A DNA stretch of 64,000 nt, from positions 1-64,000 of the IMG/VR virus record IMGVR_UViG_3300021962_000044; one strand, written 5' to 3'. Below the pieces are notes generated by a model. The model saw nothing but the letters and a program-made list of their open reading frames with translations, did not search any database and was not told where the DNA came from. The stretch's first letter is position 1. Each line of letters starts with the position of its first letter. Made by a program: the position numbers and the translations under genes. The stretch is from a virus. Below, in pieces: positions 7,927 through 50,988 of this stretch.

Positions 7927-8481
7927 ATGGCACAAGACATAATGATAGATATGGAAACACTTGACACAAGTCCTGATTGTGTTATCTTAACCATTGGTGC
8001 AGTAAGATTTGATCCTAAAGGTAGTGGAGTTGTTGAAAGACTAGAATTACGACCTACTATTGAAGAACAAACAGAAATTTATAATAGGAGTATAAATGAA
8101 GATACATTACGCTGGTGGGGTGAGCAAAGTCCGGCAGCTCTTGAAGAGGCTATGGGAGAAAATGGCAGAATTCCATTTAAAGAATGTATGGAAATACTTT
8201 ATAAGTTTTGTTGGAATCGCCGTGCTGTGTGGAGTAATGGTGCATCATTTGATGTGGTTGTGGCAGAGTCGGCCTGGAGAAACCTTGAAATGCGAACCCC
8301 CTGGCCTTTCTACACCGTTAGAGATACACGTACCTTGTATGAGATAACTGGAGTAAGTCTTAAAGACGGCGGTCACGTAACCAGTCACAAAGCAGTTGAA
8401 GATGCCGAAAGACAAGCAATTGTTGTACAAAAAGCGTATACTAAATTAATTAAAGCAGAACTGGTACCTCCCCCAAAATGA
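7927..8481 (+). CDS. DEDDh 3'-5' exonuclease
   Basis: IDMETL, SNGASFD, RDTRT, HKAVEDA. Confidence 0.85.
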   Translation: MAQDIMIDMETLDTSPDCVILTIGAVRFDPKGSGVVERLELRPTIEEQTEIYNRSINEDTLRWWGEQSPAALEEAMGENGRIPFKECMEILYKFCWNRRAVWSNGASFDVVVAESAWRNLEMRTPWPFYTVRDTRTLYEITGVSLKDGGHVTSHKAVEDAERQAIVVQKAYTKLIKAELVPPPK

Positions 8482-9041
8482 GAATAGACTCAGATATTGA
8501 CATTGACTTTGGTGATAGAGATAAGTTATTACAACTTATAAAATATACGCCGGCAGCAATGCGTAATGTAAAACCAATACGTAAACATGCTACCGGTGTA
8601 TATGTTACTGACATTCCATATGATCCAGTCAACAGTATGTCAAGTATTGATTATACAGTTGCAGATAAACGTGGATATTTTAAATTAGACTTATTGAATG
8701 TTCATGTGTATAGTCAGGTTAGTGATGAACTGCATTTAATAGAATTAATGCGAGAACCTAACTGGGATAAACTTAAAGATCCTGTATTTGTAGAGAAATT
8801 AATTCACTTAAATAATCAATTTTATAATTTACAAAAAATGCCGGAACCAGTAGATAGTATTCCTAGATTAGCTATGTTTCTAGCTGTAATTCGTCCTGGT
8901 AAGAAGCATTTAATAGGTGAACGATGGATTAATGTTGCTAAAACTGTATGGGATAAAGGTACAGACGGGTATGTGTTTAAAAAGTCGCATAGTTTAGCCT
9001 ATTCACAGCTAGTTGTAGTTCATATGAACCTATTAGGGTAA
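8478..9041 (+). CDS. dnaE: DNA polymerase III alpha-like catalytic fragment (C-part of split mini-DnaE)
   Basis: DIDIDF, KHATGVYV, FKLDLL, AVIRPG and GYVFKKSHSLAY match DnaE motifs. Confidence 0.8.
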   Translation: MRIDSDIDIDFGDRDKLLQLIKYTPAAMRNVKPIRKHATGVYVTDIPYDPVNSMSSIDYTVADKRGYFKLDLLNVHVYSQVSDELHLIELMREPNWDKLKDPVFVEKLIHLNNQFYNLQKMPEPVDSIPRLAMFLAVIRPGKKHLIGERWINVAKTVWDKGTDGYVFKKSHSLAYSQLVVVHMNLLG

Positions 9042-9413
9042 GCGTTTAACTAATGTAATACTACGGCGTTTGCTTCTACGTTTATTTAATTCAATTATAC
9101 TACAGACAGGACCATGTAGTATAGTAAGACTTTTGTTATTAAATGTCCTAATATAGGGCTTAAATATACTCCATTCATCTTTTAAAAATAGATTGATGGG
9201 TATTAATCTATTACTTTCCCACCACCAAACATCACCTAATTCTAAGAATTTCTCTTTAATAGCGTTATCTATTATAGAACCGTAATCATATATAGTGGTG
9301 ACTATATCGTCCCTATTTTGAACAATTCCTACATAATCTTGATTTGCGTAGGAACAAATAGTTATGAAGGGGTGATTTTCGCCTAATCGTTTAAAAAACT
9401 CGTTTTGTATCAT
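9033..9413 (-). CDS. Hypothetical protein
   Basis: Probable ATG 9413 (MIQNEFF) downstream of a TAAATA element. Confidence 0.65.
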   Translation of the reverse strand: MIQNEFFKRLGENHPFITICSYANQDYVGIVQNRDDIVTTIYDYGSIIDNAIKEKFLELGDVWWWESNRLIPINLFLKDEWSIFKPYIRTFNNKSLTILHGPVCSIIELNKRRSKRRSITLVKRLP

Positions 9414-9498
9414 TAAAATTATAGTCTCGGATATATTTATCGGGCAAACCAAACCATTAATAAATTAATATATAAATACACAATAGGAGATTACATTT

Positions 9499-10266
9499 GT
9501 GTACTCAACCCAAGTTTTCATTTATACACAACGCCAAATCGTTGTATTATTATCAGGATATTCGCCAAGGAGTTATATGCCTCAGTATGCCAAACCACTG
9601 ACCCTACACAAGGGTGTAGATAACATGATTCAGTTCCAGTTTCTAAATCAACAACAAAAACCTGTTGATATTACTGGTAAATCAATAACATGTAGAATTA
9701 TCAACTATCAGGGTAATGAATTATTATTGCAAAAAGCACTAACCTTGCAATTACCTGCAACAGGAATTGCCGCATTAATGTTAGGTCCTGCTGATATAGA
9801 AAGTTTTGATGCTCAAAAATGTTATTACTCATTAGAGATTCCGGTAGGAGAATTTGATTATCCTGTATTCGTTGACCAAAATGCAGGTGCTAGAGGTGAT
9901 TTAAATATTGTTAATAGTGTACTTCCTAGCTTTGTACCTTCAATGCCAGTTACAATTCCTACAGGACAATCGTTCCCTAACAACAATAGTAATGGTAATA
10001 GCGATAGCAACTTGACTTATTATACCAGTGTAATTACAACCAATGATTCTAGTGTATTAACTTTGCAGGCAGAATATAGTGATTATTATGGTAATATTGC
10101 CATTGAAGGTTCTACTATTGTTGATGGAGATTGGTATCCAATATTCGCTGACACATACACAGAAGTAACAGATACAAAAGGGTATGTTGTAGAAGGCTTC
10201 CACCCATATATCAGAATGCAATTTGAAAGCAATGCTGGTTTTGTAACCAACATATTGGCAAGATAA
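9499..10266 (+). CDS. Putative virion structural protein (BppU-N-like beta-sandwich)
   Basis: FQFLNQQQKPVDITG motif; AGGAG RBS with GTG start. Confidence 0.5.
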   Translation: MYSTQVFIYTQRQIVVLLSGYSPRSYMPQYAKPLTLHKGVDNMIQFQFLNQQQKPVDITGKSITCRIINYQGNELLLQKALTLQLPATGIAALMLGPADIESFDAQKCYYSLEIPVGEFDYPVFVDQNAGARGDLNIVNSVLPSFVPSMPVTIPTGQSFPNNNSNGNSDSNLTYYTSVITTNDSSVLTLQAEYSDYYGNIAIEGSTIVDGDWYPIFADTYTEVTDTKGYVVEGFHPYIRMQFESNAGFVTNILAR

Positions 10267-10315
10267 ACAACCATAGTTGTTGATATCTCTGTTAGAGTAT
10301 GTTATACTACTACTA

Positions 10316-11293
10316 ATGTTTGATATTTTATCTATTATTCCGGGAAAGAAAAAAACAACAAGTAGTGGCTGGCACAGCTTCAACGCTATTTGTTGTAGCC
10401 ATCTCGGGCACAAACCCGATCGCAGAATGCGTGGTGGCATCAAGTTTGACGGACAAACTAATTGGTCTATGCATTGTTTCAATTGTGGATACAAATGTAA
10501 CTTTGTATTAGGTCGTAGCATAAGCTATAAAACAAAACAACTATTAATGTGGTGTGGTATAGATGATACACAAATAGGTAAGTGGAGTTTAGAAAGTCTA
10601 CAACAAAAAGACTTATTAGATATTGTTATTCAAAAGAAAACTAAATTTAAAATCAAATTCAAAGACCATGAATTGCCTGAAGGTGAATTGCTTGAAGGAA
10701 ATAATCCATTACACAAAGAGTATATTGATTATGTGCAGTCGAGGGGGATAAATTATAATGAGTATCCGTTCTTAATAACACCTACTGCAAAAGGTCGTTA
10801 CGCAAATAGAATAATCATTCCCTACACATATAAAAATAAAATCGTTGGTCACACCAGTAGATTCTTAGACAATAAAATACCAAAATATATTAACGAACAA
10901 CAACCGGGTTATTTGTTCAACATTGATATACAGAAGCCTGAGTGGCAAGTATGTATATTAACAGAAGGTATATTTGATGCATTAAGCATTGATGGTGTCG
11001 CAATCATGCACGATGATATAAGCAATGAACAAGCACAACTGCTTGCAACATTGAATAAACAAATCATTGTTGTTCCAGATAGAGATAAGACAGGATTAAA
11101 AATATGTGATAGAGCTTTAGAGTTGGGCTATAGTGTTAGTTTACCTAATTGGGAACCGGGTATTAAAGATGTCAATGATGCCGTAGTGCGTTACGGCAAG
11201 TTGGCAACTCTATTAAGTATCTTGCAAAATGCTACAATGAGTAAAATAAAAATAGAAATACAGAGGAAGAAAATTGAGAAAACAATCCAATAA
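10316..11293 (+). CDS. DNA primase (T4 gp61/DnaG-like)
   Basis: Zn-binding CC..HCFNC; TOPRIM EGIFDAL, PDRDKTG, KDVND; ATG 7 nt after a TTGATA-17-TATACT promoter. Confidence 0.85.
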   Translation: MFDILSIIPGKKKTTSSGWHSFNAICCSHLGHKPDRRMRGGIKFDGQTNWSMHCFNCGYKCNFVLGRSISYKTKQLLMWCGIDDTQIGKWSLESLQQKDLLDIVIQKKTKFKIKFKDHELPEGELLEGNNPLHKEYIDYVQSRGINYNEYPFLITPTAKGRYANRIIIPYTYKNKIVGHTSRFLDNKIPKYINEQQPGYLFNIDIQKPEWQVCILTEGIFDALSIDGVAIMHDDISNEQAQLLATLNKQIIVVPDRDKTGLKICDRALELGYSVSLPNWEPGIKDVNDAVVRYGKLATLLSILQNATMSKIKIEIQRKKIEKTIQ

Positions 11294-12713
11294 TAAAGAA
11301 TATACAGTAGAGATGCAGAAGTTGTTTCTGCAAATGATGATTACTAATGCTGAACTTTATACCAGAGTTATGAACATTATGAACTCTGAAAACTTTGATA
11401 GGTCTTTGCGTCCAGTAGCAGAGTTATTCAAAGAACATACAACAAAGTATAGTGTATTGCCTGATAGCACACAGATAAAAGCAATCACTGGTATAGATAT
11501 TGAAGTGATACCTGAATTAGTACAGGGACATTATGATTGGTTCTTCGAAGAATTTGAAGCATTTACTAGACGACAAGAGTTAGAAAGAGCTATTCTTAAA
11601 TCAGCCGATTTATTAGAAAAAGGTGAGTTTGAACCAGTTGAAAAATTAATCAAAGATGCAGTACAAATCAGTTTACAAAAAGACATGGGTACAGATTATT
11701 TTCTTGACCCTGCTGGTCGTATTAACAAATATTTTAATAGTGGTGGGCAAGTTAGCACAGGCTGGCCGCAACTTGATAGAATACTATATGGTGGATTTAG
11801 TCGTGGCGAATTGAATATTTTTGCAGGTGGTTCTGGCTCAGGTAAAAGTCTTGTTATGATGAATATTGCATTAAATTGGTTACAGACAGGAATGAGCGGT
11901 GTATATGTTACATTAGAATTGAGTGAAGAATTAACTAGTTTGCGTACTGATGCGATGTTAACTAACATGGGTACAAAAGATATTCGTAGAGATATTGGAT
12001 CAACTGAACTTAAAGTTAAAATGGTAGGTAAAAAGTCAGGACAATATCGTGTTAAAGCACTACCCGCACAAAGTAATGTAAATGATATTCGTGCTTATTT
12101 AAAAGAAGTACAGATCCAAACAGGTATTAAAATTGACTTTGTTATGATTGACTATTTGGATCTAGTAATGCCGGTATCTGTTAAAGTCAATCCTAATGAC
12201 CAGTTTATTAAAGACAAGTATGTTGCTGAAGAATTACGTAATCTTGCAAAAGAGATGGGTATATTGATGGTAACTGCAAGTCAATTGAATCGTACAGCGG
12301 TTGATGAAATTGAGTTTGACCATAGTCACATTGCTGGTGGTATCAGTAAGATTAATACAGCAGATAATGTGTTTGGTATCTTTACAAGTCGCAGTATGAG
12401 AGAACGTGGAAAGTATCAAATTCAATGTATGAAAAGTCGTAGTTCAACGGGTGTAGGACAAAAGATTGATTTAGATTATAATGTAGAAACCATGAGAATT
12501 AGTGATTCCGGTGGTGACGGTGAAGATAGTTACAGACCACAACCTAGCGCCACTGATATTATGAATAAGTTAAAACCCCAATCTACATTACAGTCTACAG
12601 AACCTATTATAGATCAATCTACAGGCGAGATATTAGAACCTGAAAACAAGAAAGTTGTAGTAGATGTTCAGGGGTCAAAGCTTAAAAACTTACTTAATAG
12701 TTTAAAGAAATAA
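11274..12713 (+). CDS. Replicative DnaB/gp41-like helicase
   Basis: GGSGSGKS, IDYLDL, TASQLNR, MKSR. Confidence 0.9.
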   Translation: MRKQSNNKEYTVEMQKLFLQMMITNAELYTRVMNIMNSENFDRSLRPVAELFKEHTTKYSVLPDSTQIKAITGIDIEVIPELVQGHYDWFFEEFEAFTRRQELERAILKSADLLEKGEFEPVEKLIKDAVQISLQKDMGTDYFLDPAGRINKYFNSGGQVSTGWPQLDRILYGGFSRGELNIFAGGSGSGKSLVMMNIALNWLQTGMSGVYVTLELSEELTSLRTDAMLTNMGTKDIRRDIGSTELKVKMVGKKSGQYRVKALPAQSNVNDIRAYLKEVQIQTGIKIDFVMIDYLDLVMPVSVKVNPNDQFIKDKYVAEELRNLAKEMGILMVTASQLNRTAVDEIEFDHSHIAGGISKINTADNVFGIFTSRSMRERGKYQIQCMKSRSSTGVGQKIDLDYNVETMRISDSGGDGEDSYRPQPSATDIMNKLKPQSTLQSTEPIIDQSTGEILEPENKKVVVDVQGSKLKNLLNSLKK

Positions 12714-12741
12714 TCCTTAAAATAGATAAATACTATTAGGA
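12714..12741 (+). promoter_or_regulatory. Late promoter in the loop of an RBS-occluding hairpin
   Basis: TCCT-taa-AATAG [ATAAATA] CTATT-AGGA. Confidence 0.55.
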
Positions 12742-12748
12742 AATTAAT

Positions 12749-13003
12749 ATGCAAAAACAAACTCGCAGCCTTCTGCAGGAATTGGAAGCTATCGGCAATA
12801 ATCGTGATACAAGTCATGTTATTGAGAGTAGAGCCCACAACATCATTACCAGTGCTATTAATTTATTAGAAATGATTAATAGGAACTATCCTAAAGAACA
12901 AGCAGAAATATTAGAGAGAAAGTTGCTTGGGGCGATTAAAAGCCGTGATCAAGGTAAGTTTTCTAAATCAATAAAGAAGAATAGCGACAAAGAGCAGTTA
13001 TGA
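12749..13003 (+). CDS. Hypothetical late protein
   Basis: 84-aa ORF after TAAATA. Confidence 0.7.
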   Translation: MQKQTRSLLQELEAIGNNRDTSHVIESRAHNIITSAINLLEMINRNYPKEQAEILERKLLGAIKSRDQGKFSKSIKKNSDKEQL

Positions 13004-14148
13004 ATTTAGCGGAAACATTAGCATTACTTAAATCTAAAATTGACAAACTATCTATAAATGAAGATAAAGGTCATTTAGACCACCCAGAAGATTTAATCTT
13101 TTTAGGCGGTAGTGAGGGTGCTAATCGTGCTATACAAGCTACTGTTGCTACAGTTAAAAATCCGGCAACTGTTACCATTAAATGGGATGGATATCCTGCA
13201 TTAATATTTGGACGTAATAGTTCAGGTAAGTTTAGTATTATGGACAAACATATGTTCAATAAGAAAGACGGCACAGGACGTCAAGTATTCAGTCCTGAAC
13301 AATTTGTACAATATGATCAAGCACGTAGTGTAGAGCGTGATAGTTTATGGCCTATTATTACTGAAATATGGCCTGGATTAGAAAAAGCTAGCAAAGGTGC
13401 TAAGGGTTATTACTGGGGTGATTTGTTATTTCATCAACCATTAAACGACCAAAACGGTAACTATGTTTTCAAAGCTAATCCTAATGGTATTACTTATAAA
13501 GTAGAAGCTAATAGCCCAATTGGTAAATTAATGAGTGGAAAACGTGCTGGTATAGCAGTACATCAGTATATTGATCCTAACGCAATGACTACAGATGAAG
13601 CAGTTACATTGGATGGTAATATAGGACAATTAAAAAATAATAGTGATGTTGCAATTGTTCCTAGTGCTATGCCAACAGCACCTAAGCTTAAGATAGATAA
13701 CACTTTATTAAAGAACGCACAGAATGCAATAAAGAAATATGGTCCTGCAGTGGATCAATTGATGAATACTGCCCCACAAGCACGTAATACATTTAATCAA
13801 TTGTTTACTGTATATATTAACAAGAAGATTGTTTCGGGCGATTTAAACAATCTTGCTAGTGGTTTTATGGATTTTGTAGAAACTAGACCTATGACTGACA
13901 AAATGAAAGCTAAGATAAGTGAACATCTTAATAATAATAAAGATGCTATTGTTGGAGCATTTACTATATGGATTGCAATGTACAACCTAAAAATGTCTGT
14001 AGTTAGTCAATTAAATAAAGCCGCAGAAGTTAGTCCTGTTAAAGGATATTTAGAAGACGGAACCGAGACACATGAAGGTTTTGTATCAAATGGCTTAAAA
14101 TTTGTAGATAGAATGGGCTTTAGTCGTCAAAATCTAGCCAGAAGATAA
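13000..14148 (+). CDS. Ligase-like nucleotidyltransferase-fold protein (DUF6267-like), probably packaged
   Basis: HLDHPED, KWDG, WGDLL, EGFV, LKFVDR; N-terminal leader ending LSINE. Confidence 0.55.
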   Translation: MNLAETLALLKSKIDKLSINEDKGHLDHPEDLIFLGGSEGANRAIQATVATVKNPATVTIKWDGYPALIFGRNSSGKFSIMDKHMFNKKDGTGRQVFSPEQFVQYDQARSVERDSLWPIITEIWPGLEKASKGAKGYYWGDLLFHQPLNDQNGNYVFKANPNGITYKVEANSPIGKLMSGKRAGIAVHQYIDPNAMTTDEAVTLDGNIGQLKNNSDVAIVPSAMPTAPKLKIDNTLLKNAQNAIKKYGPAVDQLMNTAPQARNTFNQLFTVYINKKIVSGDLNNLASGFMDFVETRPMTDKMKAKISEHLNNNKDAIVGAFTIWIAMYNLKMSVVSQLNKAAEVSPVKGYLEDGTETHEGFVSNGLKFVDRMGFSRQNLARR

Positions 14149-14226
14149 GCCCAAAACCAACATTTTTTGTTGCCAGGCATAAATAATAGTAGAGCTATAT
14201 GCTCACAAACTTAAAGGAATTTTATC

Positions 14227-14592
14227 ATGGCACAATTTACACGTGTAAACGGCGACTATCTACCAGTCATTAACTATGACGCACCTGACTATACAAATAG
14301 CGGTGTAAACGCAGTTACTTCTGGAGCAACTGTTCAACCACAAGGTCCAAAATTGGACTTCTTCACAGTCACTTTTGACGGTGCATTGACTACAACACAA
14401 TTGAATGTAGCTGTTCAGACTATTCAACAATTAGCTACAATCTATATGTATGAGTATACAGATACAGGTAATGACACATTAGCTGTTGCTTTATATCCAG
14501 TTGGCGCATGGACAACTACAAGTTTAGACACTGCATTGACTGCGGCTGTTGAGGCTGTAACAGTTACAGCTACTGCTACATTCACAGGTTAA
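14227..14592 (+). CDS. Small virion structural protein
   Basis: Thr/Ala/Val-rich; own late promoter, RBS and terminator. Confidence 0.6.
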   Translation: MAQFTRVNGDYLPVINYDAPDYTNSGVNAVTSGATVQPQGPKLDFFTVTFDGALTTTQLNVAVQTIQQLATIYMYEYTDTGNDTLAVALYPVGAWTTTSLDTALTAAVEAVTVTATATFTG

Positions 14593-14611
14593 TTTTAACT
14601 TGAACAAAAGG

Positions 14612-14636
14612 ACCCGAGAAATTCTCGGGTTTTTTT
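14612..14636 (+). terminator. Rho-independent terminator
   Basis: ACCCGAGA-AAT-TCTCGGGT plus T run. Confidence 0.9.
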
Positions 14637-14655
14637 ACCTCTATTAAATAGTAAT

Positions 14656-15114
14656 ATGAGTTATAAGATTACTTGTTATACATTATTTGATATTACACCA
14701 ACTGGAGTAATGAATCGGCATCGTCCTGTTGAAAAAGAACAAATACCTGAATGGTTACATAAAAGAAATACACAATGTAATTTTGACACGGTATTACAAG
14801 CAGTATCATTGAGAAGTCAACCTGAAATATTAAATATGCCAAAAAAAATAGAAATAAGATTTGATGAATTTGGTGATTTTGGATTTCTGTTTGAACAACG
14901 TGAAAATGAAATTTATAATTGCTGGTCTTTTGATTTTGAAATACAACATGCTAGTGTTTTTAATGACGGTACTAATGAATTAGGAGCATTGTATAGTGAT
15001 TGTGACAATGTTCCAATGATCAAAACAGACACTAGTTGGAGTGAATTACCTTCATTTTTAGATACCAGTGCCGAACTACGTAATATATATTTTAAAGTTG
15101 TAGAATATGATTAA
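14656..15114 (+). CDS. Hypothetical late protein
   Basis: ATG 5 nt after TAAATA. Confidence 0.7.
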   Translation: MSYKITCYTLFDITPTGVMNRHRPVEKEQIPEWLHKRNTQCNFDTVLQAVSLRSQPEILNMPKKIEIRFDEFGDFGFLFEQRENEIYNCWSFDFEIQHASVFNDGTNELGALYSDCDNVPMIKTDTSWSELPSFLDTSAELRNIYFKVVEYD

Positions 15115-15586
15115 ACGATATAATGCCGAAAAACAGTTAGCTAAATTAATGAAACCCAATATTATTGGGGATTTAGAAGATGTTATAATTTTTCAAAATA
15201 CTGATGGTAGCTATGAGTTATTCAATATGTATCATATTACTAAAAATGAAAATAATGAATATATAGTAACAATGCATACTACATTTACTATTCATAATTT
15301 TAACACACTTAAACATGCTGTAGCATGGTGTACATTTGACAAAAGAAATATGTTTTATCAGGCTAATAGGATATTAAAATTGGATAATTTACTAGCTGGG
15401 TTGGAAGTAGATATATCATTACATACCAAAATCTTCAAAAATGCCAAAGATACGGACAATCGTCTAATAGTTTTATCCAAATTAAGTGAGGATAAGCTGA
15501 AAAAAAGACGGTATACGGATGAATTGTACACATATATTAATGATTCTAAAAAATGGCAAACTAAAAGATTTGACACAAAACCCTAA
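15107..15586 (+). CDS. Hypothetical protein
   Basis: 159-aa coupled ORF. Confidence 0.7.
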   Translation: MIKRYNAEKQLAKLMKPNIIGDLEDVIIFQNTDGSYELFNMYHITKNENNEYIVTMHTTFTIHNFNTLKHAVAWCTFDKRNMFYQANRILKLDNLLAGLEVDISLHTKIFKNAKDTDNRLIVLSKLSEDKLKKRRYTDELYTYINDSKKWQTKRFDTKP

Positions 15587-15635
15587 CAATAAAACAAAAA
15601 AGATAAATACTTTATATTAGTCTTGGAATATAACT

Positions 15636-16358
15636 ATGAAATTAACCGAATTCGACAACAAAAAAATATCAACAGCTTCTAGAGCTTTGAATGAACACTA
15701 TTCTCTTCCGTTTAATACAAAGAGAATGACTGTAACTGAAACTAAGTCTATGCTTGGTAAAGTTCGTGGATTGATTAATGAAACCAAATCATCTACTGAC
15801 TTTTATCAAAGCCAAACTAGTCCATCGTACATGAAACTAGTGTTTATGGAACAAGCATTAGCTGACCATTTTAACTATTTACAGTCACTACCTAAAACTC
15901 GTATCGTTGTAGAGAACGAAGAAGTTGAAAAATCACAGGTTGTTCTTGCAGCCCAAGACATGGTAGACCAAGTACAAAAAATGGTTGAAGAAGTATCTGA
16001 TATGTTAGTAAAAGAATTACCAGCATTAACATCAGGTGTTCAAAGCGAAATTGGCGTAAATGAAAGTGAATCTTTCAACCAACAAGTTACTGAAGCACTA
16101 ACTGCACTACAAGCCGCATTGACACAATCTAAAGGCACATTACAATCTGCATTGAACGGTATTACTGGTCAAGGCGGTGAAATGGCTTCTGATAATGCAT
16201 TTGGTGATGAGACTAATGATATGTCTGCTGATATGGATATGTCTGCTGATATGGAAACACCCGGCGGTGAAGAAGATTTCAGCGTTGATGATGACATATC
16301 TATTGAAGAACCAGATGAAGAAATGCCCGTTGCAGGTGCTGGCCGCGCAAAGAGATAA
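15636..16358 (+). CDS. Putative head core/scaffold-like protein
   Basis: MKLTE leader, coiled coil, acidic C-terminus, late promoter. Confidence 0.5.
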   Translation: MKLTEFDNKKISTASRALNEHYSLPFNTKRMTVTETKSMLGKVRGLINETKSSTDFYQSQTSPSYMKLVFMEQALADHFNYLQSLPKTRIVVENEEVEKSQVVLAAQDMVDQVQKMVEEVSDMLVKELPALTSGVQSEIGVNESESFNQQVTEALTALQAALTQSKGTLQSALNGITGQGGEMASDNAFGDETNDMSADMDMSADMETPGGEEDFSVDDDISIEEPDEEMPVAGAGRAKR

Positions 16359-16681
16359 TGCGATTATTTGAGCTATCAAATCCAAACCCACTATTAGTAA
16401 GATTAGTTGCTGTAACAAGTCAGTTGGCTAGTGATATTGATAGTGGTGTTGAACATTCTGATTGGACAGTTGATGAGTTATTAGATTACTATAAAAGTAA
16501 TGATATCATATTAGCTAAAGATGATTTGTACGATATGATTAAAAAGCCACCATTAAAGAATAAAATTTCAAACATTCAAGGTGATAAGGTTATATTTAAG
16601 GGTCAAGAAACCCCAGTAGAACCTGAAGAAGAAGAAAGTAAAAAAGTTGTCAAACAAATGGCACAAAAAGCAATGAAGTAA
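16358..16681 (+). CDS. Putative head-associated protein
   Basis: MRLFE leader; TAATG coupling. Confidence 0.55.
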   Translation: MRLFELSNPNPLLVRLVAVTSQLASDIDSGVEHSDWTVDELLDYYKSNDIILAKDDLYDMIKKPPLKNKISNIQGDKVIFKGQETPVEPEEEESKKVVKQMAQKAMK

Positions 16682-16682
16682 G

Positions 16683-17009
16683 ATGATTACACTCTCTGAA
16701 AAAGCTTCAAATAAAATACAACAAATAATTAAAAAACGTGGTAAAGGTCTAGGAATACGAATAGGCGTCAAGACCACTGGTTGTAGCGGATTAGCATATG
16801 TATTAGAATATGTAGATGAATACACATATGAAGAATCTATTATTAATTATGCACAACCTAATTTTATTGTATTAGTAGATAAAAAGCATGATGTTTATCT
16901 AAAGAACATGAAAGTAGATTATGTGCGTAATGGGTTAAATGAAGGGTTTGAGTTTAGCAACCCAAATGAGCGTGACCGATGCGGTTGTGGAGAGAGTTTT
17001 AGAGTTTAA
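16683..17009 (+). CDS. iscA: A-type Fe-S cluster carrier IscA
   Basis: TTGCSGLAY and C-terminal CGCGESF. Confidence 0.95.
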   Translation: MITLSEKASNKIQQIIKKRGKGLGIRIGVKTTGCSGLAYVLEYVDEYTYEESIINYAQPNFIVLVDKKHDVYLKNMKVDYVRNGLNEGFEFSNPNERDRCGCGESFRV

Positions 17010-17053
17010 CCTAAATTCTTGCATTTAAATATAAAATATAATATAATAGTTAA

Positions 17054-17740
17054 ATGTACATTCCAAACAAATATAATTATGTCCCAATGAGCCGTGTAGA
17101 AATAGACGGCAAACGCAGATACGCTACACCAGATGGTGAAAAACTCCCTTCAGTTACTACTATTTTAGACGCTACTAAAAGCGAAGAATCTAAGAAAGCA
17201 TTAATGGAATGGCGTAAACGTGTAGGTGCACAAAAAGCACAAGAAATCACAACAGAAGCCGCAGGCCGTGGAACACGAATGCACAAATGGTTAGAAAACT
17301 ATATTAAAACAGGAGCAACGGGTGAGCCCGGAAGCAATCCATATAGCTTACAAAGCCATACTATGGCACAAACTATCATTAGTGAAGGTCTTATTAAATG
17401 CAATGAATATTGGGGTACAGAAGTTCCTCTCTATTATCCAAAAATTTATGCAGGGACAACAGACCTAGTAGGTATACATGATGGTGATGAAGCTATTATG
17501 GATCACAAACAAACAAATAAACCTAAAAAACGTGAGTGGATTGAAGATTATTTTGTTCAGTTAGCCGCTTATGCTAATGCTCACAATGAAGTGCATGGTA
17601 CAAAGATACGTAAAGGTGTTATTTTTATGTGTTCCGCTGATAATCTTTATCAGGAATTCATATTAGAAGGATCTGATTTTGACAAGTATTCAGATATTTG
17701 GTTCAATCGTGTAGAAAAATATTACATGAGCTTTCTGTAA
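17054..17740 (+). CDS. PD-(D/E)XK exonuclease
   Basis: LPSVTTIL, GTRMH, AGTTDL, DHKQ, QLAAY; leaderless after TTGCAT-17-TATAAT. Confidence 0.85.
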   Translation: MYIPNKYNYVPMSRVEIDGKRRYATPDGEKLPSVTTILDATKSEESKKALMEWRKRVGAQKAQEITTEAAGRGTRMHKWLENYIKTGATGEPGSNPYSLQSHTMAQTIISEGLIKCNEYWGTEVPLYYPKIYAGTTDLVGIHDGDEAIMDHKQTNKPKKREWIEDYFVQLAAYANAHNEVHGTKIRKGVIFMCSADNLYQEFILEGSDFDKYSDIWFNRVEKYYMSFL

Positions 17741-17783
17741 GAAATAATGATAAATAAGTGTAAATCTTCAAAGAATTACACTT

Positions 17784-19262: not shown

Positions 19263-19275
19263 ATAGGAAAATAAA

Positions 19276-19563: not shown

Positions 19564-19599
19564 TATATATTAGATAAATATTTTATAAGGAAAAATAAA

Positions 19600-38730: not shown

Positions 38731-38742
38731 CTAAATACTTGT

Positions 38743-39225: not shown

Positions 39226-39251
39226 TAAATACATAATACAGGAATAATGAA

Positions 39252-39881: not shown

Positions 39882-39893
39882 AAGGAACATAAC

Positions 39894-42593: not shown

Positions 42594-42610
42594 TTAGTTC
42601 TGTGTAAAAG

Positions 42611-42637
42611 TACCCGGCATTAGTCGGGTATTTTTTT
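42611..42637 (+). terminator. Rho-independent terminator
   Basis: TACCCGGC-ATTA-GTCGGGTA plus T7. Confidence 0.9.
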
Positions 42638-42688
42638 GGCTATAGTCTTTATAAAAAAACGATAAATACTAAATAAGGTGATATAGTT

Positions 42689-45328
42689 ATGAGTCAACAA
42701 AACATAGATTTCGGTTCCTTCCCCGACGATCCGAATGCGGATGCAATAAGAACGGCATTCCAAAAAGTACAAGATAACTTTGATGAAATATATGCAGCAG
42801 CCACTGTAGGTAGTGTAACATCAGTTAATAATGGTTCCGGCATTACAGTTAATACTCCTACAGGTAGTGTTGTTGTTACAGCTAATATTGCATGTGTACA
42901 AGTATCCACATCTTCATTATTAGTTAGTCGATCAGGTAGTACACCCGGAACATCTGCTAATATTACCAGTTCTTCTCAAATATTAGTAATAGATATTAAT
43001 CCGGCAAATGTTTTTTCTGCTAATTTTTCTGGTGTCAGCGGAGCATTAGCAAATCTTACCGGAACATTAACAACAAACTCTAACAGTCAACCAAATATTA
43101 CAAGTGTTGGTACACTAGCAAACTTAACAGTAACTGGAAATGCTAATGTAGGTAATATTGGTGCTACCGGAGTTGTTGCAACTACATTAGGCGGAACATT
43201 AACAACTATATCACAACCAAATGTAACAAGCGTAGGAAATTTAACTTCATTAAATGTAACCGGTAATATTAGGTCATCAGCTTATATAGGTGGAAATGTA
43301 TCTACTACTGGAGCCAATGCAATATTTGTAGGTGACGGTGGTTTATTAAGTAACTTAACTGTCTCGGCTGGTAGTTCAATTGTTAATGGTAATAGTAATG
43401 TTAGTATAACGGCAAACGGTAATGTAACTACTAGTGTTGCAGGCATTGCTGACATATTCATTGTTACTAGTACTGGTGCTAATGTATCCGGATATCTAAC
43501 TGTTTCTGGTAATATCACCGGTGCAAATGCAAATCTTGGTAATGCTGTTACTGCTAATTATTTTATTGGTAATTTACATGGTATTGCTAACAGTGCTACT
43601 ACTGCGGGTACAGTAACAACTGCGGCACAACCTAATATTACAAGTGTCGGTACATTAAGCTCAGTAACAGTAACTGCTGATGTGACAGCAGGAAATGTTT
43701 ATGCTAATAGTGGTATAGTTAAGGGACAATATTTATACGGTGATGGCAGTAATATTTCTAATATTACTATTTCAGCAGGTAGCTCTATTGTTAATGGTAC
43801 AAGTAATGTAAGTATACCGGGAGCTAATGGTAATGTTAATACCGTTGTTGCCGGTAACACTACTTTAGTTGTCACTGGAACAGGGGTTAACGTAGCAGGT
43901 AATTTAAACGCTACCGGTACTATTACTGGTAACTTCAACGGCAATGTAATTAATGCTACACAGGGCAATATTACAAGTTTAGGAACATTAACAGGGTTAA
44001 ATGTATCTGGTGCAAGTAATTTAGGTCCAGTGGGTAATGTAACAATTACCGGCGGCAATGCCAATGCATTTTTAATGACTAATGGATCTGGAACATTAAC
44101 TTGGAATAACGGTACACTATTACCGGTACAAGGTAGTAATAGTCAAGTAATATTTAATGACGGTGGAACAATTTATGCAGGTAATGCTAACTTAACTTTT
44201 AATAAAACAACTGGATTATTAACATCAACTTTATTAGGTGGAACATTAACTACAGCCGCCCAACCAAATATAACAAGCTTGGGTTCACTAACATCAATCA
44301 CTATTAATGGACCTACTATTGCTAATGGTACATTTAATACCGGAAATGCTAATGCAAATATTATCACTGCTAACTATTACATAGGTAATGGTTCAAATTT
44401 AGCAAGTATAACAGGTGCAAATGTAACCGGAACTGTAGCAAACGCAACATACGCAATAACTGCGGGTACTGCAACAACTGCGGGTACAGTAACAACAGCC
44501 GCACAACCAAATATTACAAGTGTTGGTACACTGACTGGATTAGGTGTAAATGGTACAATTACTGGTGTAAATATTACTGCAAATACAGGCGTGTTTACAG
44601 GTAATGGTAGTTCTTTAACAGCACTAAATGCAAATAACATTAGTTCAGGTACTCTTGCTCAAGCAAGATTAGCAAATGCAAGTGTAACATTAGGTAGCAC
44701 AGCATTAACGCTTGGTTCAACAGTAACAACAGTTGCAGGCCTGTCAAGCGTTACATCAACTACATTTGTTGGTTCATTGAGTGGTGCGGCAACAACAGCA
44801 GGTACAGTAACAACAGCCGCACAACCAAATATTACAAGTGTTGGTACATTGACCTCATTAACAACAACTACTATTAGTACTGGTGCAAACTCAACAGCAG
44901 GAACTATTACTGGTAATTGGTCATTGTCAGCTGGATCCCAATTACGGGCTACATATGCTGACTTAGCAGAATATTATGCAGGTGATTCAAATATTGAACC
45001 AGGCACGGTAATTGAATTTGGCGGCACACAAGAAGTTCAAATTTGTAATTCATATATGAGTAGGTTAGTTGCTGGCATTGTTACAACAAAACCAGCATAT
45101 ATAATGAATACTGATATCAGTTGTGAATATCCTATTGCAATTGCATTACAAGGTCGTGTTCCGGCTAAAGTAATTGGACCAGTAAAACGAGGTGATATGA
45201 TGGTTAGCTCAAACAACGGTCATGCTATATCTTGTAAATCACCTAATATGGGAACTGTATTAGGAAAAGCACTAACTGATTTTGACGGTAAAACAGGTAT
45301 AATAGAAATTATGGTAGGAAGAACATAA
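42689..45328 (+). CDS. Tail fibre protein with C-terminal chaperone-like domain
   Basis: N-terminal D.IRTAF.K..NF.E.Y; ~7 QPNITSVG-type repeats; YADLAEYY..GRVP.KV. Confidence 0.8.
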   Translation: MSQQNIDFGSFPDDPNADAIRTAFQKVQDNFDEIYAAATVGSVTSVNNGSGITVNTPTGSVVVTANIACVQVSTSSLLVSRSGSTPGTSANITSSSQILVIDINPANVFSANFSGVSGALANLTGTLTTNSNSQPNITSVGTLANLTVTGNANVGNIGATGVVATTLGGTLTTISQPNVTSVGNLTSLNVTGNIRSSAYIGGNVSTTGANAIFVGDGGLLSNLTVSAGSSIVNGNSNVSITANGNVTTSVAGIADIFIVTSTGANVSGYLTVSGNITGANANLGNAVTANYFIGNLHGIANSATTAGTVTTAAQPNITSVGTLSSVTVTADVTAGNVYANSGIVKGQYLYGDGSNISNITISAGSSIVNGTSNVSIPGANGNVNTVVAGNTTLVVTGTGVNVAGNLNATGTITGNFNGNVINATQGNITSLGTLTGLNVSGASNLGPVGNVTITGGNANAFLMTNGSGTLTWNNGTLLPVQGSNSQVIFNDGGTIYAGNANLTFNKTTGLLTSTLLGGTLTTAAQPNITSLGSLTSITINGPTIANGTFNTGNANANIITANYYIGNGSNLASITGANVTGTVANATYAITAGTATTAGTVTTAAQPNITSVGTLTGLGVNGTITGVNITANTGVFTGNGSSLTALNANNISSGTLAQARLANASVTLGSTALTLGSTVTTVAGLSSVTSTTFVGSLSGAATTAGTVTTAAQPNITSVGTLTSLTTTTISTGANSTAGTITGNWSLSAGSQLRATYADLAEYYAGDSNIEPGTVIEFGGTQEVQICNSYMSRLVAGIVTTKPAYIMNTDISCEYPIAIALQGRVPAKVIGPVKRGDMMVSSNNGHAISCKSPNMGTVLGKALTDFDGKTGIIEIMVGRT
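44483..44848 (+). repeat. Exact 48-bp direct repeat (44483-44530 and 44801-44848)
   Basis: GGTACAGTAACAACAGCCGCACAACCAAATATTACAAGTGTTGGTACA occurs twice. Confidence 0.9.
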
Positions 45329-45329
45329 T

Positions 45330-45953
45330 ATGGTAACTATAGAATTATTAACGGCAATGTGTCCAAAAACAAAACGTTCTATCTTAGAGGGTTATGTAGA
45401 GCCACTCAACACAGTAGCAGAATACTATGAGATGTTTGAGAATCCACGTAGAATTGCTGGCTTCTTAGCACAAATAGCACACGAAAGTGGTGGCTTTAAC
45501 GCTGTCATTGAAAACTTAAATTACTCAGCTAAAGGATTGATGGGTACATTTAAAAAGTATTTTCCTAATGAAGAACTAGCAAAACAATATGAACGTAAGC
45601 CAGAAATGATTGCTAATCGTGTTTACGCTAATCGTATGAAGAACGGTGATGAGAATAGTGGTGATGGATTTAGATTCAGAGGTCGTGGACTAATTCAATT
45701 GACCGGTCGTGATAACTATACACGTTTTGCAGAAGCATTAGATATGAGTATTGAAGATACTGTAAGATATTTAGAAACACCAAATGGTGCTGTTGCCAGT
45801 GCTGGTTGGTTCTGGGACAATAATAAACTAAATCAATTCTGTGATAAAGATGATTTCATTACATTAACAAAACGTATTAATGGTGGCACTATTGGATTGG
45901 AAGATAGAAAACACCATTATCATTTGGCATTACAACATTTGGGCGCACATTAA
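45330..45953 (+). CDS. Glycoside hydrolase family 19 endolysin
   Basis: FLAQIAHESGG, ENLNYS, FRGRGLIQLTGRDNY, TKRINGG..GLEDR. Confidence 0.9.
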   Translation: MVTIELLTAMCPKTKRSILEGYVEPLNTVAEYYEMFENPRRIAGFLAQIAHESGGFNAVIENLNYSAKGLMGTFKKYFPNEELAKQYERKPEMIANRVYANRMKNGDENSGDGFRFRGRGLIQLTGRDNYTRFAEALDMSIEDTVRYLETPNGAVASAGWFWDNNKLNQFCDKDDFITLTKRINGGTIGLEDRKHHYHLALQHLGAH

Positions 45954-45954
45954 T

Positions 45955-48534
45955 ATGGCACAACCAATATGGAATACACCAGCAGGTTCATTGGGTACAT
46001 TCCCGGCCACAATACCGTTGGCTGTTCAATTATCAGCATCAGCCGTTTCTCCTGCAACTAGTGTTACATATACCTTACTTAGTGGTACATTACCTGCAGG
46101 ATTAACAATTAATAGTTCAGGGGTAATAAGTGGAACTACTCCGATAGTAACACAAGATGTAAGTAGTACATTTACAATTAGAGCCACTGATAATTTATTA
46201 GTAGTTCGTGACCGAACTTTTTCAATGATTATTTCAGGTGTGGCAATTCCTGAATTTACAACTCCAGCTGGTAGTATATTAAACACCATTGATAGTGTGT
46301 GGATTGAGTTACCAATAGAATATTCCAATCCTGATAATACTAATACAATTCAAATTGAGTTACAAGAAGGTCTATTACCACCTGGATTAGAGATTAATAC
46401 TGAGGGTATAATTAGAGGTTATCCTAATCCTCCTATAGTTACTGTAACAGTAAATCAAATAGTAACAAATGCTACAATTACTAATGGTTCTTCAAATACA
46501 ATTACATGTACAACTACTAATTCATTTACTGTAGGAAGACCGGTAGTTTTTACTAATACTGCTTTTGGTGGCATAGTCGGAGGAACTACTTATTACATAA
46601 GATCAATTGATAGCACAACTACATTTACTATATCTGCTACACAAGACGGACCAGTCTATGCATTAACAACTGGTACCGGATCTATGACAGTTACCCTGCC
46701 TTCAGTATCAACCGGTCAACCCATTATACGAACTTATTCTTTTATTCTTAGATTAACAAGTGCGTTAGGAGGAGATACAGCATCATATAATATTACTGTT
46801 ATAAATCAAAACACACCGGTAAGCCAAGGTGGACCAGGTAATCCACCTAACACACGTGTTCCTACTATACTTAATACTAGACCTAGAACATATGTAATTA
46901 CTGATAGTGATCCGTATTATGGATACTATATATTACCACCAGTAAGTCCATCTATACCGGCAACTATTGGTACAGTTAGAAGTGGTGAGAATTTTGCTTT
47001 TAAAATAATAGGTTACGATTTTGATGGCAATACTTTAGAATATGATTATATTAATTTGCCATCAGAATTGACAGGTGATATTAATACCGGATGGATTACT
47101 GGAGTTCCGACATTAAATTCAATTGGATTAAGCACATTTAATTTTGCAGTTAATGTTTATAAAGCAGGAAGAACTGATATTGTTACTGCTAATTTTAACT
47201 TCACTTATAATGTAAGTAATGAAATAACTGATACAATAGTATGGGTTACTCCTAATGATTTAGGTACAATTTTTAATGGTTCAATTAGTACATTAAGTGT
47301 TACTGCTATAGCAGATACTGAATTATCATATAGAATAGTTGATGGGGCATTACCTCCTAATCTTTATATTTTAGACAATGGTGAAATAACCGGTAGGGTG
47401 TCTGAACAACCCACTGATACATTATTAGCACAAAACACAGAAACAGTTTTCACTTTTACTGTAGAAGCATATTCACCTTTATATTCAGTAGTACAATCTG
47501 AAAAAACATTTACGGTAACTGTATTGCAAGAATATAATCAACCAACTGATACTCTTTATATACAAGCTACAACTAGTATAAATGATAGAAATATAATTAA
47601 TAGTTTGTTATCTAATGAAACATTAATTCCGGAAGAAATGTTATACAGACCAAATGACATTTATTTTGGTAAAGCAACTAATGTTATATATGAACATGCA
47701 TATGGAATATATGCTAGTAATATTGATGAATATTTAGCCGCAGTAACTCAAAATCATTATTGGAGAAATATTACATTAGGTGAAATAAAAACTGCATTAG
47801 CAAAAAATAGTGCAGGTGAAATCATATATGAAGTAGTATATAGTGAGGTTATTGATAATTTAGTTAATCCTCAAGGCATAAGTATTCAACAAGAAATTGT
47901 ATGGCCAAGACCAATTAATTTGGGATTAGGTCCTTGGTATACAAGTGTTACTAATACATATTCTAGTTATAATAAAGATTTACCTCCTGGTTATTATACT
48001 AGTAGGACACCGGGCTATGCACAAACATTATATCCAAATAGTTTATTCAACATGCGTAATCGTGTAGCACAAGTTGTTGGGCAAGAATATGATAGCAGAT
48101 TGTTACCATTGTGGATGACTAGTCAACAAGAAAATGGCGGTACATTAGGTTATACTCAAGCTTGGGTTATATGTTATACTAAACCTGGAATTATTGTTGA
48201 TGGTGAACAATTAACTTATGCTGAATTTGAAGCGACTGGTTTAAAAAGAACACATACTCTAAATGGAGCAACTGTAATAGACTATTTTAGTTATGCTGAA
48301 ACTATTAAAAATAATATACAAAATAATTGGCAATATACACTGAATCAAATCAACTTTAGAATTGATAGATTTAGTGTAGATAAAAGTGAAACATACAACT
48401 ACGACAAAAATCTTAATCCACCTGCTTGGACAGGATTACCAAGTGCAACACCCGTACCTGATCCATTGGATAGTAAGAATTTCTATGTATTGTTCCCTAG
48501 AGAAACAATTTTACCAGATCAATCAGAATACTAA
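45955..48534 (+). CDS. Baseplate/tail protein with putative-Ig repeats
   Basis: Repeated W.TP.G.LG and G.LP.GL.I...G.I.G modules; probable start ATG 45955. Confidence 0.7.
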   Translation: MAQPIWNTPAGSLGTFPATIPLAVQLSASAVSPATSVTYTLLSGTLPAGLTINSSGVISGTTPIVTQDVSSTFTIRATDNLLVVRDRTFSMIISGVAIPEFTTPAGSILNTIDSVWIELPIEYSNPDNTNTIQIELQEGLLPPGLEINTEGIIRGYPNPPIVTVTVNQIVTNATITNGSSNTITCTTTNSFTVGRPVVFTNTAFGGIVGGTTYYIRSIDSTTTFTISATQDGPVYALTTGTGSMTVTLPSVSTGQPIIRTYSFILRLTSALGGDTASYNITVINQNTPVSQGGPGNPPNTRVPTILNTRPRTYVITDSDPYYGYYILPPVSPSIPATIGTVRSGENFAFKIIGYDFDGNTLEYDYINLPSELTGDINTGWITGVPTLNSIGLSTFNFAVNVYKAGRTDIVTANFNFTYNVSNEITDTIVWVTPNDLGTIFNGSISTLSVTAIADTELSYRIVDGALPPNLYILDNGEITGRVSEQPTDTLLAQNTETVFTFTVEAYSPLYSVVQSEKTFTVTVLQEYNQPTDTLYIQATTSINDRNIINSLLSNETLIPEEMLYRPNDIYFGKATNVIYEHAYGIYASNIDEYLAAVTQNHYWRNITLGEIKTALAKNSAGEIIYEVVYSEVIDNLVNPQGISIQQEIVWPRPINLGLGPWYTSVTNTYSSYNKDLPPGYYTSRTPGYAQTLYPNSLFNMRNRVAQVVGQEYDSRLLPLWMTSQQENGGTLGYTQAWVICYTKPGIIVDGEQLTYAEFEATGLKRTHTLNGATVIDYFSYAETIKNNIQNNWQYTLNQINFRIDRFSVDKSETYNYDKNLNPPAWTGLPSATPVPDPLDSKNFYVLFPRETILPDQSEY

Positions 48535-48557
48535 ATATATAACGGAACACAACGAAT

Positions 48558-49583
48558 ATGAGCACAATTAACACAAACGGTATCAATGTAAATTACCCTG
48601 TACCAGGGGTAAATAACAACAGCCAAGGTTTTAGAGATAACTTTGCGGCAATTAGAACTAACTTGAATACAGCTGGTACTGAAATCACAGACCTACAAAA
48701 CAAAGTAGTTGTTAAATCAGCACTAGCAAATTCTACAGTAAACAATGATATGGCTAATACTCTTATTAGCAATGCTTTAACACGTAGTTTTCGTGCTAGT
48801 ACTTACAATTTAGGTAATGCAATATCAGGCACAGTATTAGTAAATGTATCCTTAGGTGATGTTCAGTATGGTACTATTGCAGGTAATACTACTATTCAAT
48901 TTACTGGATGGAGTCCTACTAGTACTCAAAGTAACGTTCAATTACAATTAGCAGTATCAAATAATTTAGCAGTATTATCATTCCCTAGTCAAGTGACCGA
49001 CGGTGTAACATCATTGGAAAATTATGCAAATGTTGCCAATACTAATACAGTTTCTATTCCATATGGTGTAACCCAATTAGATTATAGATTCAGTACATTG
49101 GATTGCGGTAATTCAATTACAGTAGAACCATTTAATAATCCCAGAATAATATCACAAGTTCAACAAAGAACACCGGCACCAACGGGCTTTCAAGGAGATG
49201 TAGCCGGCGATATTGCAATAGATGCTAACTATGTTTATGTATGTACTGCATCATACAATTCAATTGCAAATACAGTTGTAATTGCAAATGCTAGTTCTAC
49301 TGGAGATTTGTTAACAGTTTCAAATACAGGTAGCTTAACTTTAAACGATCCTATAATTTTTACAGGAGCTAACGTAACACAAGCTAATTTGGTAGCAAAT
49401 ACAATATATTATGTTAAAGCAATTGCATCCTCAGGTGCTAACGGAACAATTTCTGTAAGTGCTACTAGATCATCAGGCACTGCAGGAGCCAATGTTACAT
49501 TAACAACAACTGCAAATGGATTTAGCGCAAATACATTTAATGGTACTGATATATGGAAAAGAATTGCACTAACTTCTTGGTAA
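48558..49583 (+). CDS. Virion/baseplate-associated protein
   Basis: YPVPGVNNNSQGFRDNF N-terminus; D.NYVYVC..WKRIAL..W C-terminus. Confidence 0.65.
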   Translation: MSTINTNGINVNYPVPGVNNNSQGFRDNFAAIRTNLNTAGTEITDLQNKVVVKSALANSTVNNDMANTLISNALTRSFRASTYNLGNAISGTVLVNVSLGDVQYGTIAGNTTIQFTGWSPTSTQSNVQLQLAVSNNLAVLSFPSQVTDGVTSLENYANVANTNTVSIPYGVTQLDYRFSTLDCGNSITVEPFNNPRIISQVQQRTPAPTGFQGDVAGDIAIDANYVYVCTASYNSIANTVVIANASSTGDLLTVSNTGSLTLNDPIIFTGANVTQANLVANTIYYVKAIASSGANGTISVSATRSSGTAGANVTLTTTANGFSANTFNGTDIWKRIALTSW

Positions 49584-49594
49584 TAAATATTTGA

Positions 49595-49828
49595 ATGGAA
49601 CACCCATTCATTTCATCACTATCTGATAAAACTCTTGAGGAGTTGCAGACTGTCATGTCCGAATTAACTAAAAAACTAAACTTTGCATATCGTATGCAAA
49701 ACAGTGCCATGATTCATCAATTAAATATGGTTATGGCTAGCTATAAAGCTGAATATGGTCGCAAAATGGATGAGCTTCTTAAAAAGCAAGGTGACCGAAC
49801 TCAAATCAATATTCAAAAAGAAAGCTAA
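49595..49828 (+). CDS. Hypothetical protein
   Basis: ATG 5 nt after TAAATA. Confidence 0.65.
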   Translation: MEHPFISSLSDKTLEELQTVMSELTKKLNFAYRMQNSAMIHQLNMVMASYKAEYGRKMDELLKKQGDRTQINIQKES

Positions 49829-49830
49829 AA

Positions 49831-50433
49831 TTGACTACACGCATAGAACGAGATTTTTCATTTCAAGCAGGTGTTTATTTCCAAGAAGAATTTTTAATGA
49901 ACGTATATACTATATCATTATATATGGATGTAGAAACAGAATCTATTAGAGAACAAAACGTAGCAATGGAAAGAATCAAATACTTTCTAAATGATTGTTT
50001 AGAGAATAGCATTTTTGTACAAGATACTGAACATAAAATTATTGAGAAATATAATTCATGTGGCTTTAAAGTTTGTACAGTTCCCGAAGAACCTTACGAT
50101 CAAATTATTACTATACTGTTATTAACTAAACTGAATAGCATTACTGAAGGAAGATTAGTAATTACTGATATTACTTTAGGCTCAAGGATAAGCGATCAGG
50201 TTAAGTTTAGTTATGATATTGAAAGTCCACGTGGTCCTTTAGAAGTAGCCGGATGGTGGACAGATAACGGTACATCAATATCAGATCCTGTCAAAAAATC
50301 AGTACGTAAAGACAAAATTGTTAAGTTGTTTAAAACACAATCAACAGATTGGGCAGAATACAATTTAATTTGGAAAGAAAAAGATCCTAAAATTAAAAGT
50401 GAAATTGTTTTCACTACCGATCTTGAAAAATAA
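49831..50433 (+). CDS. Hypothetical protein
   Basis: 200-aa ORF with TTG start. Confidence 0.65.
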   Translation: MTTRIERDFSFQAGVYFQEEFLMNVYTISLYMDVETESIREQNVAMERIKYFLNDCLENSIFVQDTEHKIIEKYNSCGFKVCTVPEEPYDQIITILLLTKLNSITEGRLVITDITLGSRISDQVKFSYDIESPRGPLEVAGWWTDNGTSISDPVKKSVRKDKIVKLFKTQSTDWAEYNLIWKEKDPKIKSEIVFTTDLEK

Positions 50434-50481
50434 CTAACCAAAACTATTGTATACTATTGATAACTATGCTATAATATACAA

Positions 50482-50988
50482 ATGAAAACTGATAATTATG
50501 GTCAATTAATTTTTAATCAAAATGACCTATGCGAATTATTCTTACAAGACCCTACCCGTACTATCAATAATGCACTAGTTGATAGCGTGATAGAATTTAA
50601 TGGGTTTCTATCATTAGACAATATTCCAAATTTACAATTGTATCAAAAACCAACTATATCACTGGAAGAGTTTGATAACAATAAGCAGAAAAATTGGCAT
50701 ATGCCCAAAGAATATTATGAATTAGATATTGCTAAATGGGTGTTAGATCAATGCAAAAGTGAAGCAGAATTACAACGTGCAGGTGAGGAATTAATTAAGT
50801 TCCAAGAACGTAATATGTTTGTATTATTACAATATTTAAAGTATTTGGTTGACACAATGCGTAAGAATAATATTGTTTGGGGAGTGGGTAGGGGTAGTAG
50901 TGTAGCAAGTTTTGTATTGTTTTTAATAGGAATACACCGTATAAATAGTTTATACTATGATCTATCTATAGATGAGTTTTTAAAATAA
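50482..50988 (+). CDS. dnaE: DNA polymerase III alpha-like fragment (N-part of split mini-DnaE)
   Basis: R..EEL..; WGVGRGSSVASFVLFLIGIHRINSLYYDLSIDEFLK corresponds to DnaE GRGS..FERFL; leaderless sigma70 promoter. Confidence 0.8.
   Translation: MKTDNYGQLIFNQNDLCELFLQDPTRTINNALVDSVIEFNGFLSLDNIPNLQLYQKPTISLEEFDNNKQKNWHMPKEYYELDIAKWVLDQCKSEAELQRAGEELIKFQERNMFVLLQYLKYLVDTMRKNNIVWGVGRGSSVASFVLFLIGIHRINSLYYDLSIDEFLK

Follow-up and report, generated by a model that had tools for sequence, protein, structure and literature searches.

A putative two-chain minimal DNA polymerase III alpha core encoded by two distant genes of an uncultured phage

Can the active site of a family-C DNA polymerase be shared between the products of two genes lying 42 kb apart? 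This question is raised by the IMG/VR virus record IMGVR_UViG_3300021962_000044, of which positions 1 to 64,000 were analyzed (this stretch of 64,000 nucleotides is called the window below). Two open reading frames (ORFs), both on the plus strand, are concerned. The first, at 50482..50988 (168 amino acids; PF07733, phrog_11127), encodes what we term the N-half, and its product ends in GVGRGSSVAS...DEFLK, just short of the catalytic DxD. The second, at 8478..9041 (187 amino acids; phrog_11778), encodes the C-half, which begins with MRIDSDIDIDF. A preliminary description, drawn from the letters of the window alone, had taken the two for a miniature DnaE core of about 355 amino acids, cut into two genes. 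Both ORFs are present with the ends quoted in it, and their lengths do add up to 355 amino acids. From the results given below, we are confident that the two products make up a minimal DNA polymerase III (Pol III) alpha core assembled from two chains. Very probably it is a heterodimeric minimal family-C nucleotidyltransferase, the same enzyme as that found in the group 2.2 jumbo phages. Templated DNA synthesis, the predicted activity of this mini Pol III, is held with more reserve, as the likelier outcome.

The relationship of the N-half to Pol III was detected directly. Residues 90-167 match positions 17-94 of the 260 positions of PF07733 (DNA_pol3_alpha, E-value 5.8e-9), and phrog_11127, annotated as "DNA polymerase", is matched with an E-value of 8.6e-40. 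The N-half aligns with residues 380-454 of Taq Pol III alpha, which cover the palm helices and the GRGS motif up to ...ERFL. It consists of an N-terminal region followed by the palm helices with the GVGRGSS nucleotide-binding loop. The C-half matched phrog_11778 (E-value 9.2e-53) and no Pfam family, and a search of the PDB with the single sequence returned noise only (a phytase, E-value 1.5). A profile made from 75 diverse homologues, 30-56% identical to the window C-half, matched E. coli Pol III alpha with an E-value of 2.7e-5, the matching pieces being collinear. In this alignment the DxD corresponds to residues 401/403 of the E. coli protein (Ec numbering), residues 54-140 correspond to Ec 538-641, from K553/D555 to the RPG motif, and residues 152-180 correspond to Ec 740-769, which include FNKSH in E. 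coli and KKSH in the phage. Among the 75 homologues D6, D8, K69, D71, R139 and P140 are invariant, and D10, H37, G40, K142, K168 and H171 are nearly so. The C-half is thus made of metal-binding strands (D6, D8, K69, D71), followed by a finger element that is truncated (R139-P140-G, K168-S-H171). Residue conservation and the E. coli profile match bear out the earlier statement that it keeps the three catalytic Asp equivalents together with RPG and KKSH. Across the two halves, the Pol-beta-like palm, the hG[GS] loop and the three catalytic acidic residues are all present. The C-terminal ends of the 75 homologues vary, and no conserved tail usable as a clamp-binding motif was found in their alignment.

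Natural fusions of the two halves locate the cut. When the C-half was compared by phmmer with 1.84 billion representative proteins, 381 matches were obtained. Among the best 150 of these, nearly all are stand-alone proteins of 180-215 amino acids or shorter, and one, P0278, has 375 amino acids. Three fused metagenome proteins of 375-376 amino acids are now at hand, P0278, P0391 and P0392, the last two being 81% and 78% identical to P0278 and coming from ENA and Logan data. In the fused forms about 10 linker residues join a full-length N-half to the DxD. The window N-half is collinear with their residues 1-186, and in P0278 the PF07733 match spans the junction between the two parts (E-value 4.8e-16). 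The split therefore falls between FERFL and the DxD, where the preliminary description had placed it. Its claim that neither half carries an intein also stands. Indeed, a Pfam search of both ORFs at E-values up to 1 gave PF07733 on the N-half alone, with no intein or Hint match, and neither split end has extra residues relative to the fused forms. The intein-split DnaE of cyanobacteria is similar in that a polymerase arises from two distant genes. However, its intein halves splice a full-length DnaE and its split lies at a different site, whereas mini Pol III is free of inteins, is cut through the fold of the active site and yields a minimal product.

The order of events was approached through a tree of C-halves. 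In this tree all three fused proteins group in one clade (support of 100 in the Shimodaira-Hasegawa-like approximate likelihood ratio test, SH-aLRT). This clade lies inside a larger one of support 97, whose nine other members are true C-halves standing alone, with only a few residues ahead of the DxD, and the larger clade is itself nested among split forms. The tree has a midpoint root only. Provided that the root lies anywhere outside the clade of support 97, this nesting indicates that the fused forms go back to one secondary fusion and that the split state is older.

The fused protein P0278 also gave access to the fold of the whole core. Its structure was modeled with AlphaFold2, after checking that the N- and C-halves of the alignment lay on their own halves of the protein. 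The model has a predicted local distance difference test score (pLDDT) of 85.4 and a predicted template modeling score (pTM) of 0.84, and is uncertain at residues 1-70 only. In a Foldseek search its top 18 matches were all family-C polymerases (best E-value 3.5e-8). VIA-align superposed it on Taq Pol III alpha (3e0d_A) with a Z score of 22.1 and a root-mean-square deviation of 3.1 A over 295 residues, and gave Z 20.9 for PolC and 3.7 for the best fold outside family C. The Z score with E. coli Pol III was 15-16, the alignment stopping at residue 773. For the window C-half alone, the AlphaFold2 model reached a pLDDT of 96.2, and its 15 best Foldseek matches were all DnaE chains. The fused homologue is thus predicted to adopt a palm-plus-partial-finger fold.

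Compared with cellular DnaE and PolC (E. coli, Taq, Geobacillus), mini Pol III has the same Pol-beta-like palm, GRGS loop, DxD with a third Asp, and RPG/KSH finger motifs. However, the cellular enzymes are single chains of about 1160 amino acids, whereas mini Pol III has about 355 in two chains and is devoid of the PHP, HhH/clamp-binding and tau-binding regions and of full thumb and fingers. In the C-half, the stretch of about 134 residues at Ec 404-537, which includes the thumb, is reduced to about 45 amino acids, and Ec 642-739 to about 12. Nothing corresponds to the part C-terminal of Ec 773, where the OB domain lies. The missing domains were sought in the whole record from which the window is taken, in two 100%-complete relatives and in phages Atu_ph07 and Paride. 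PHP (PF02811) and HhH (PF14579) gave no match in any of them, and the finger domain (PF17657) gave none above the Pfam cut-off, the sole signal being a sub-threshold match within the Atu_ph07 C-half itself. Thus, the domains that the preliminary description had failed to recognize (PHP, thumb, clamp-binding and OB) are indeed lost or largely so, and those searched for are not encoded elsewhere in these genomes. The protein encoded just upstream of the N-half (49831-50433) was considered as a possible missing Pol III domain and rejected, as it has no PHROG match and its best Pfam match (E-value 0.059) is not significant. A scan of metagenomes yielded ordinary long DnaE genes only (loci L173 and L174). 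In L173 (OKRZ01000398.1, 8366-12382), the PHP domain of an otherwise ordinary DnaE lies in a separate upstream ORF of 382 amino acids, and an ORF of 933 amino acids with PF07733, finger and HhH domains follows 67 bases downstream; this may be another kind of split, or a frameshift.

Both halves are maintained together and under purifying selection. The ratio of nonsynonymous to synonymous substitution rates (dN/dS), estimated against the window by the Nei-Gojobori method, is about 0.10 for the C-half (23 relatives) and about 0.12 for the N-half (44 relatives). Ten long uncultured contigs were found through one half, and all ten carry both. The halves are 37-95 kb apart in nine of them. The tenth has them at 282 kb, a distance that falls to 51 kb should the genome be circularly permuted. 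In a collection of cultured phages the C-half occurs in 96 records and the N-half in 95, all jumbo phages of the RaK2/PA5oct/Atu_ph07 type, and the counts per genus agree save for Klebsiella (11 versus 10). The two genes are never adjacent in these phages. They lie about 30 kb apart in phages of the Escherichia/Salmonella group, 43.6 kb apart in those of the PA5oct type and 116-224 kb apart in SCTP-2, Atu_ph07 and Phosso, for an overall range of 30-224 kb. Single-protein searches gave at least 8000 candidates for each half, almost all of which proved to be homologues in one length class. Of the findings that the preliminary description had named as refuting the split enzyme, those examined all turned out in its favor: the halves co-occur, purifying selection acts on both, and no ordinary DnaE is rebuilt from domains located elsewhere.

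Such an enzyme has been described before. Under the name "minimal split DNA polymerase III alpha", Iyer, Anantharaman, Krishnan, Burroughs and Aravind (2021, Viruses 13:63, PMC7824862) reported it from group 2.2 jumbo phages, that is, T4-related jumbo phages like RaK2, PA5oct and Atu_ph07. The Pol III passages of that paper describe a stand-alone NTP-binding N-unit and a Mg/template-binding C-unit encoded by distant genes, assign the GRGS-loop motif to the NTP-binding subdomain, and report no further Pol III domains, in phages that have a T4-like replisome along with a polymerase of family B. They propose that the enzyme serves repair or the making of one of the strands, and that it can stand as a model for an ancestral Pol III module. 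The window halves are orthologous, by PHROG and tblastn, to genes of Atu_ph07, PA5oct, RaK2 and 121Q. The pair shows all the defining features given in those passages, from which it does not differ in any essential respect. The N-half of Atu_ph07 (gp316) had already been annotated as Pol III alpha by Attai et al. in 2018 (PMC6102473). The reservation about novelty voiced in the preliminary description was therefore well placed: the split mini Pol III, as set out in the Pol III passages of PMC7824862, is already published, and the window contains one more, uncultured member. A split phage polymerase is also the subject of a 2026 preprint, which, by its title and abstract, deals with the chimallivirus enzyme and not with the split mini Pol III. 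The fused forms do not appear in the Pol III passages of PMC7824862 and seem to be an addition of the present analysis. Also added here are their derived position, the fixed synteny, the structural match values, the selection estimates and the lineage-specific nature of the exonuclease neighbor discussed below.

Each half has a fixed genomic setting. The C-half is followed by a small conserved gene on the minus strand (9033..9452; phrog_11637, E-value 1.2e-30; no Pfam match), which converges on the C-half and overlaps its 3' end, a layout also seen in Atu_ph07, Paride and RaK2. Next come a structural-like gene, a DNA primase (10277-11293, plus strand; phrog_47, E-value 3.7e-35) and a DnaB-like helicase (11274-12713, plus strand; phrog_19, E-value 8.6e-67), the order of this module being the same in the window and in those three phages. 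The N-half is followed by a small gene, a GroES-like head-morphogenesis gene (51355-51732, plus strand; phrog_931, E-value 8.3e-16) and a gp44-like clamp loader (52256-53182, plus strand; phrog_168, E-value 8.8e-74), in the same order in the window, Atu_ph07, Paride and 121Q. With a T4-type primase, a DnaB-like helicase and a gp44-like clamp loader in the window, the rest of the replisome is of the T4 type, as had been stated. The family B polymerase, which the preliminary description had proposed to look for elsewhere in the genome, was found in the same record. It is full-length (phrog_262, E-value 1.9e-193; 879-917 amino acids) and lies outside the window at about 77.5-80.2 kb, some 27 kb past the N-half. 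A family B polymerase is also present in 5/5 relatives examined. In Atu_ph07 (NC_042013.1, about 212.3-213.7 kb) the family B matches fall in two frames of 418 and 578 amino acids, and in Paride (OR805295.1, about 88.9-92.7 kb) in two frames of 825 and 379 amino acids. Because these are separate open frames, the main replicase of both phages appears to be split too, unlike the single ORF of our record.

How would such an enzyme work? The cut would pass through the Pol-beta-like palm, the N-chain contributing the helices and the GRGS loop, and the C-chain the shortened finger element (RPG, KKSH) and the strands that bear the three acidic residues binding metal. Since the cut runs through the palm, an active site would form only when the two chains associate, presumably by non-covalent contacts. 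The product would be a templated DNA polymerase in an accessory role, intrinsically of low processivity, assisting the family B replisome. The lack of PHP and HhH, the near lack of a thumb, the absence of anything past Ec 773 and the presence of a complete family B polymerase make an accessory, low-processivity polymerase the most likely form of the enzyme. This reading, with its link to the replisome, draws on the polymerase-specific motifs that are kept and on the constant location of the two genes, next to the primase-helicase and the clamp loader.

Several points weigh against this interpretation. Cellular Pol III grips primer and template with its thumb and fingers; here the former and most of the latter are gone, which leaves templated synthesis uncertain. 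That the two chains associate is something that we infer, and no biochemical test of the split mini Pol III was found in the papers searched. The record itself, of 111 kb, is rated about 32% complete, and the absence of further domains leans on the complete relatives. Finally, N-half residue E165 (codon 50974-50976) is aligned with Taq R452 of ...FERFL. In the fused forms, as in the N-halves of the phages, this place is taken by an invariant Glu, which may bear on nucleotide binding.

In the main rival reading, the Pol III palm would serve a nucleotidyltransferase that works without a template or outside replication, such as a DNA-modifying enzyme, a terminal transferase or a synthase of nucleotide signals. 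With the thumb, most of the fingers and every DNA- or clamp-binding domain lost, and with a complete replicase of family B already present, such an activity would be conceivable. Moreover, the Pol-beta superfamily is rich in enzymes of this kind, and weak structural matches to two of them, Cid1 and ANT(2'')-Ia, were obtained (Z 2-4). However, RPG and KKSH, which are finger motifs of family-C polymerases, are invariant or nearly so in the C-halves, and the similarity to DnaE/PolC reaches Z 21-22, against at most 3.7 for any other transferase. Both genes also lie within replication modules in every genome examined. We therefore regard a non-templated transferase as unlikely.

The exonuclease gene upstream of the C-half leads to another reading, in which the enzyme would have three subunits, the exonuclease acting as an obligate epsilon-like proofreading partner. 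This gene (7927..8481, plus strand) encodes an Rv2179c-like DEDDh 3'-5' exonuclease (PF16473, E-value 1.5e-30) and overlaps the start of the C-half in an ATGA, which agrees with the coupling noted earlier. In favor of a partnership, it is found upstream of the C-half in 68/68 close uncultured relatives and evolves under strong constraint (dN/dS 0.03). However, it is directly adjacent in only 56/68. In L010 (2076-3004), one of the 12 non-adjacent loci and the one examined, two sugar-nucleotide genes stand between them, resembling a dTDP-4-dehydrorhamnose epimerase and a cytidylyltransferase. In Atu_ph07, Paride and RaK2, the upstream neighbors of the C-half gave no exonuclease match. PF16473 was not matched anywhere in the Atu_ph07 and Paride genomes. 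RaK2 and 121Q do have a match, located elsewhere in the genome. Homologues also occur in 514 records of phages of many unrelated kinds, among them T4-like phages, where the protein is called "exonuclease A". Given the non-adjacent loci, the absence or displacement in cultured phages and this wide spread, the coupling is local and does not define the enzyme: the exonuclease is a lineage-specific neighbor and not a conserved partner of mini Pol III. A polymerase-proofreader of three subunits is thus quite improbable. The preliminary description had left open an enzyme of two or three subunits; its intein-free core of two genes with all catalytic motifs is retained, while the third subunit reduces to a neighbor within the close clade.

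A more specific form of the accessory role deserves mention. The placement of the genes suggests, speculatively, a replisome-linked role such as primer handling. Mini Pol III could then be a dedicated primer-handling polymerase, physically tied to the primase-helicase and the clamp loader, which would extend or process primers before hand-off to the family B enzyme. In Firmicutes, DnaE is the primer-extending partner of PolC, and Pol alpha serves Pol delta/epsilon in a parallel manner. The likeness to the Firmicute system is that a second polymerase, of family C, stands beside the main replicase, and that the C-half always lies by the primase and helicase. The main replicase of the phage differs in being of family B, and RNA-primer extension and hand-off are likened by analogy only. 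We consider this version doubtful. If it held, the active site, being built from two chains, would depend on the replisome being assembled.

Finally, the possibility that the two genes are decaying DnaE pseudogene fragments, or halves joined by protein trans-splicing, which the small size of the pieces relative to the large parent protein and the split-intein DnaE known in cyanobacteria might bring to mind, is contradicted by the low dN/dS, the invariant catalytic residues, the thousands of homologues of one length class, the absence of inteins and the lack of spare residues at the split ends, and is extremely improbable.

Altogether, our preferred reading is that of a two-chain minimal Pol III alpha core acting beside the family B replisome. 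Mini Pol III would be the smallest known family-C core, with an active site shared by two chains, and it occurs in phages that also carry a replicase of the archaeo-eukaryotic family B type. It is very common in metagenomes. For enzyme testing, three points are of use: each half has its fixed genomic neighborhood, the exonuclease is a partner that is not conserved, and the natural fused forms provide a single-chain construct.

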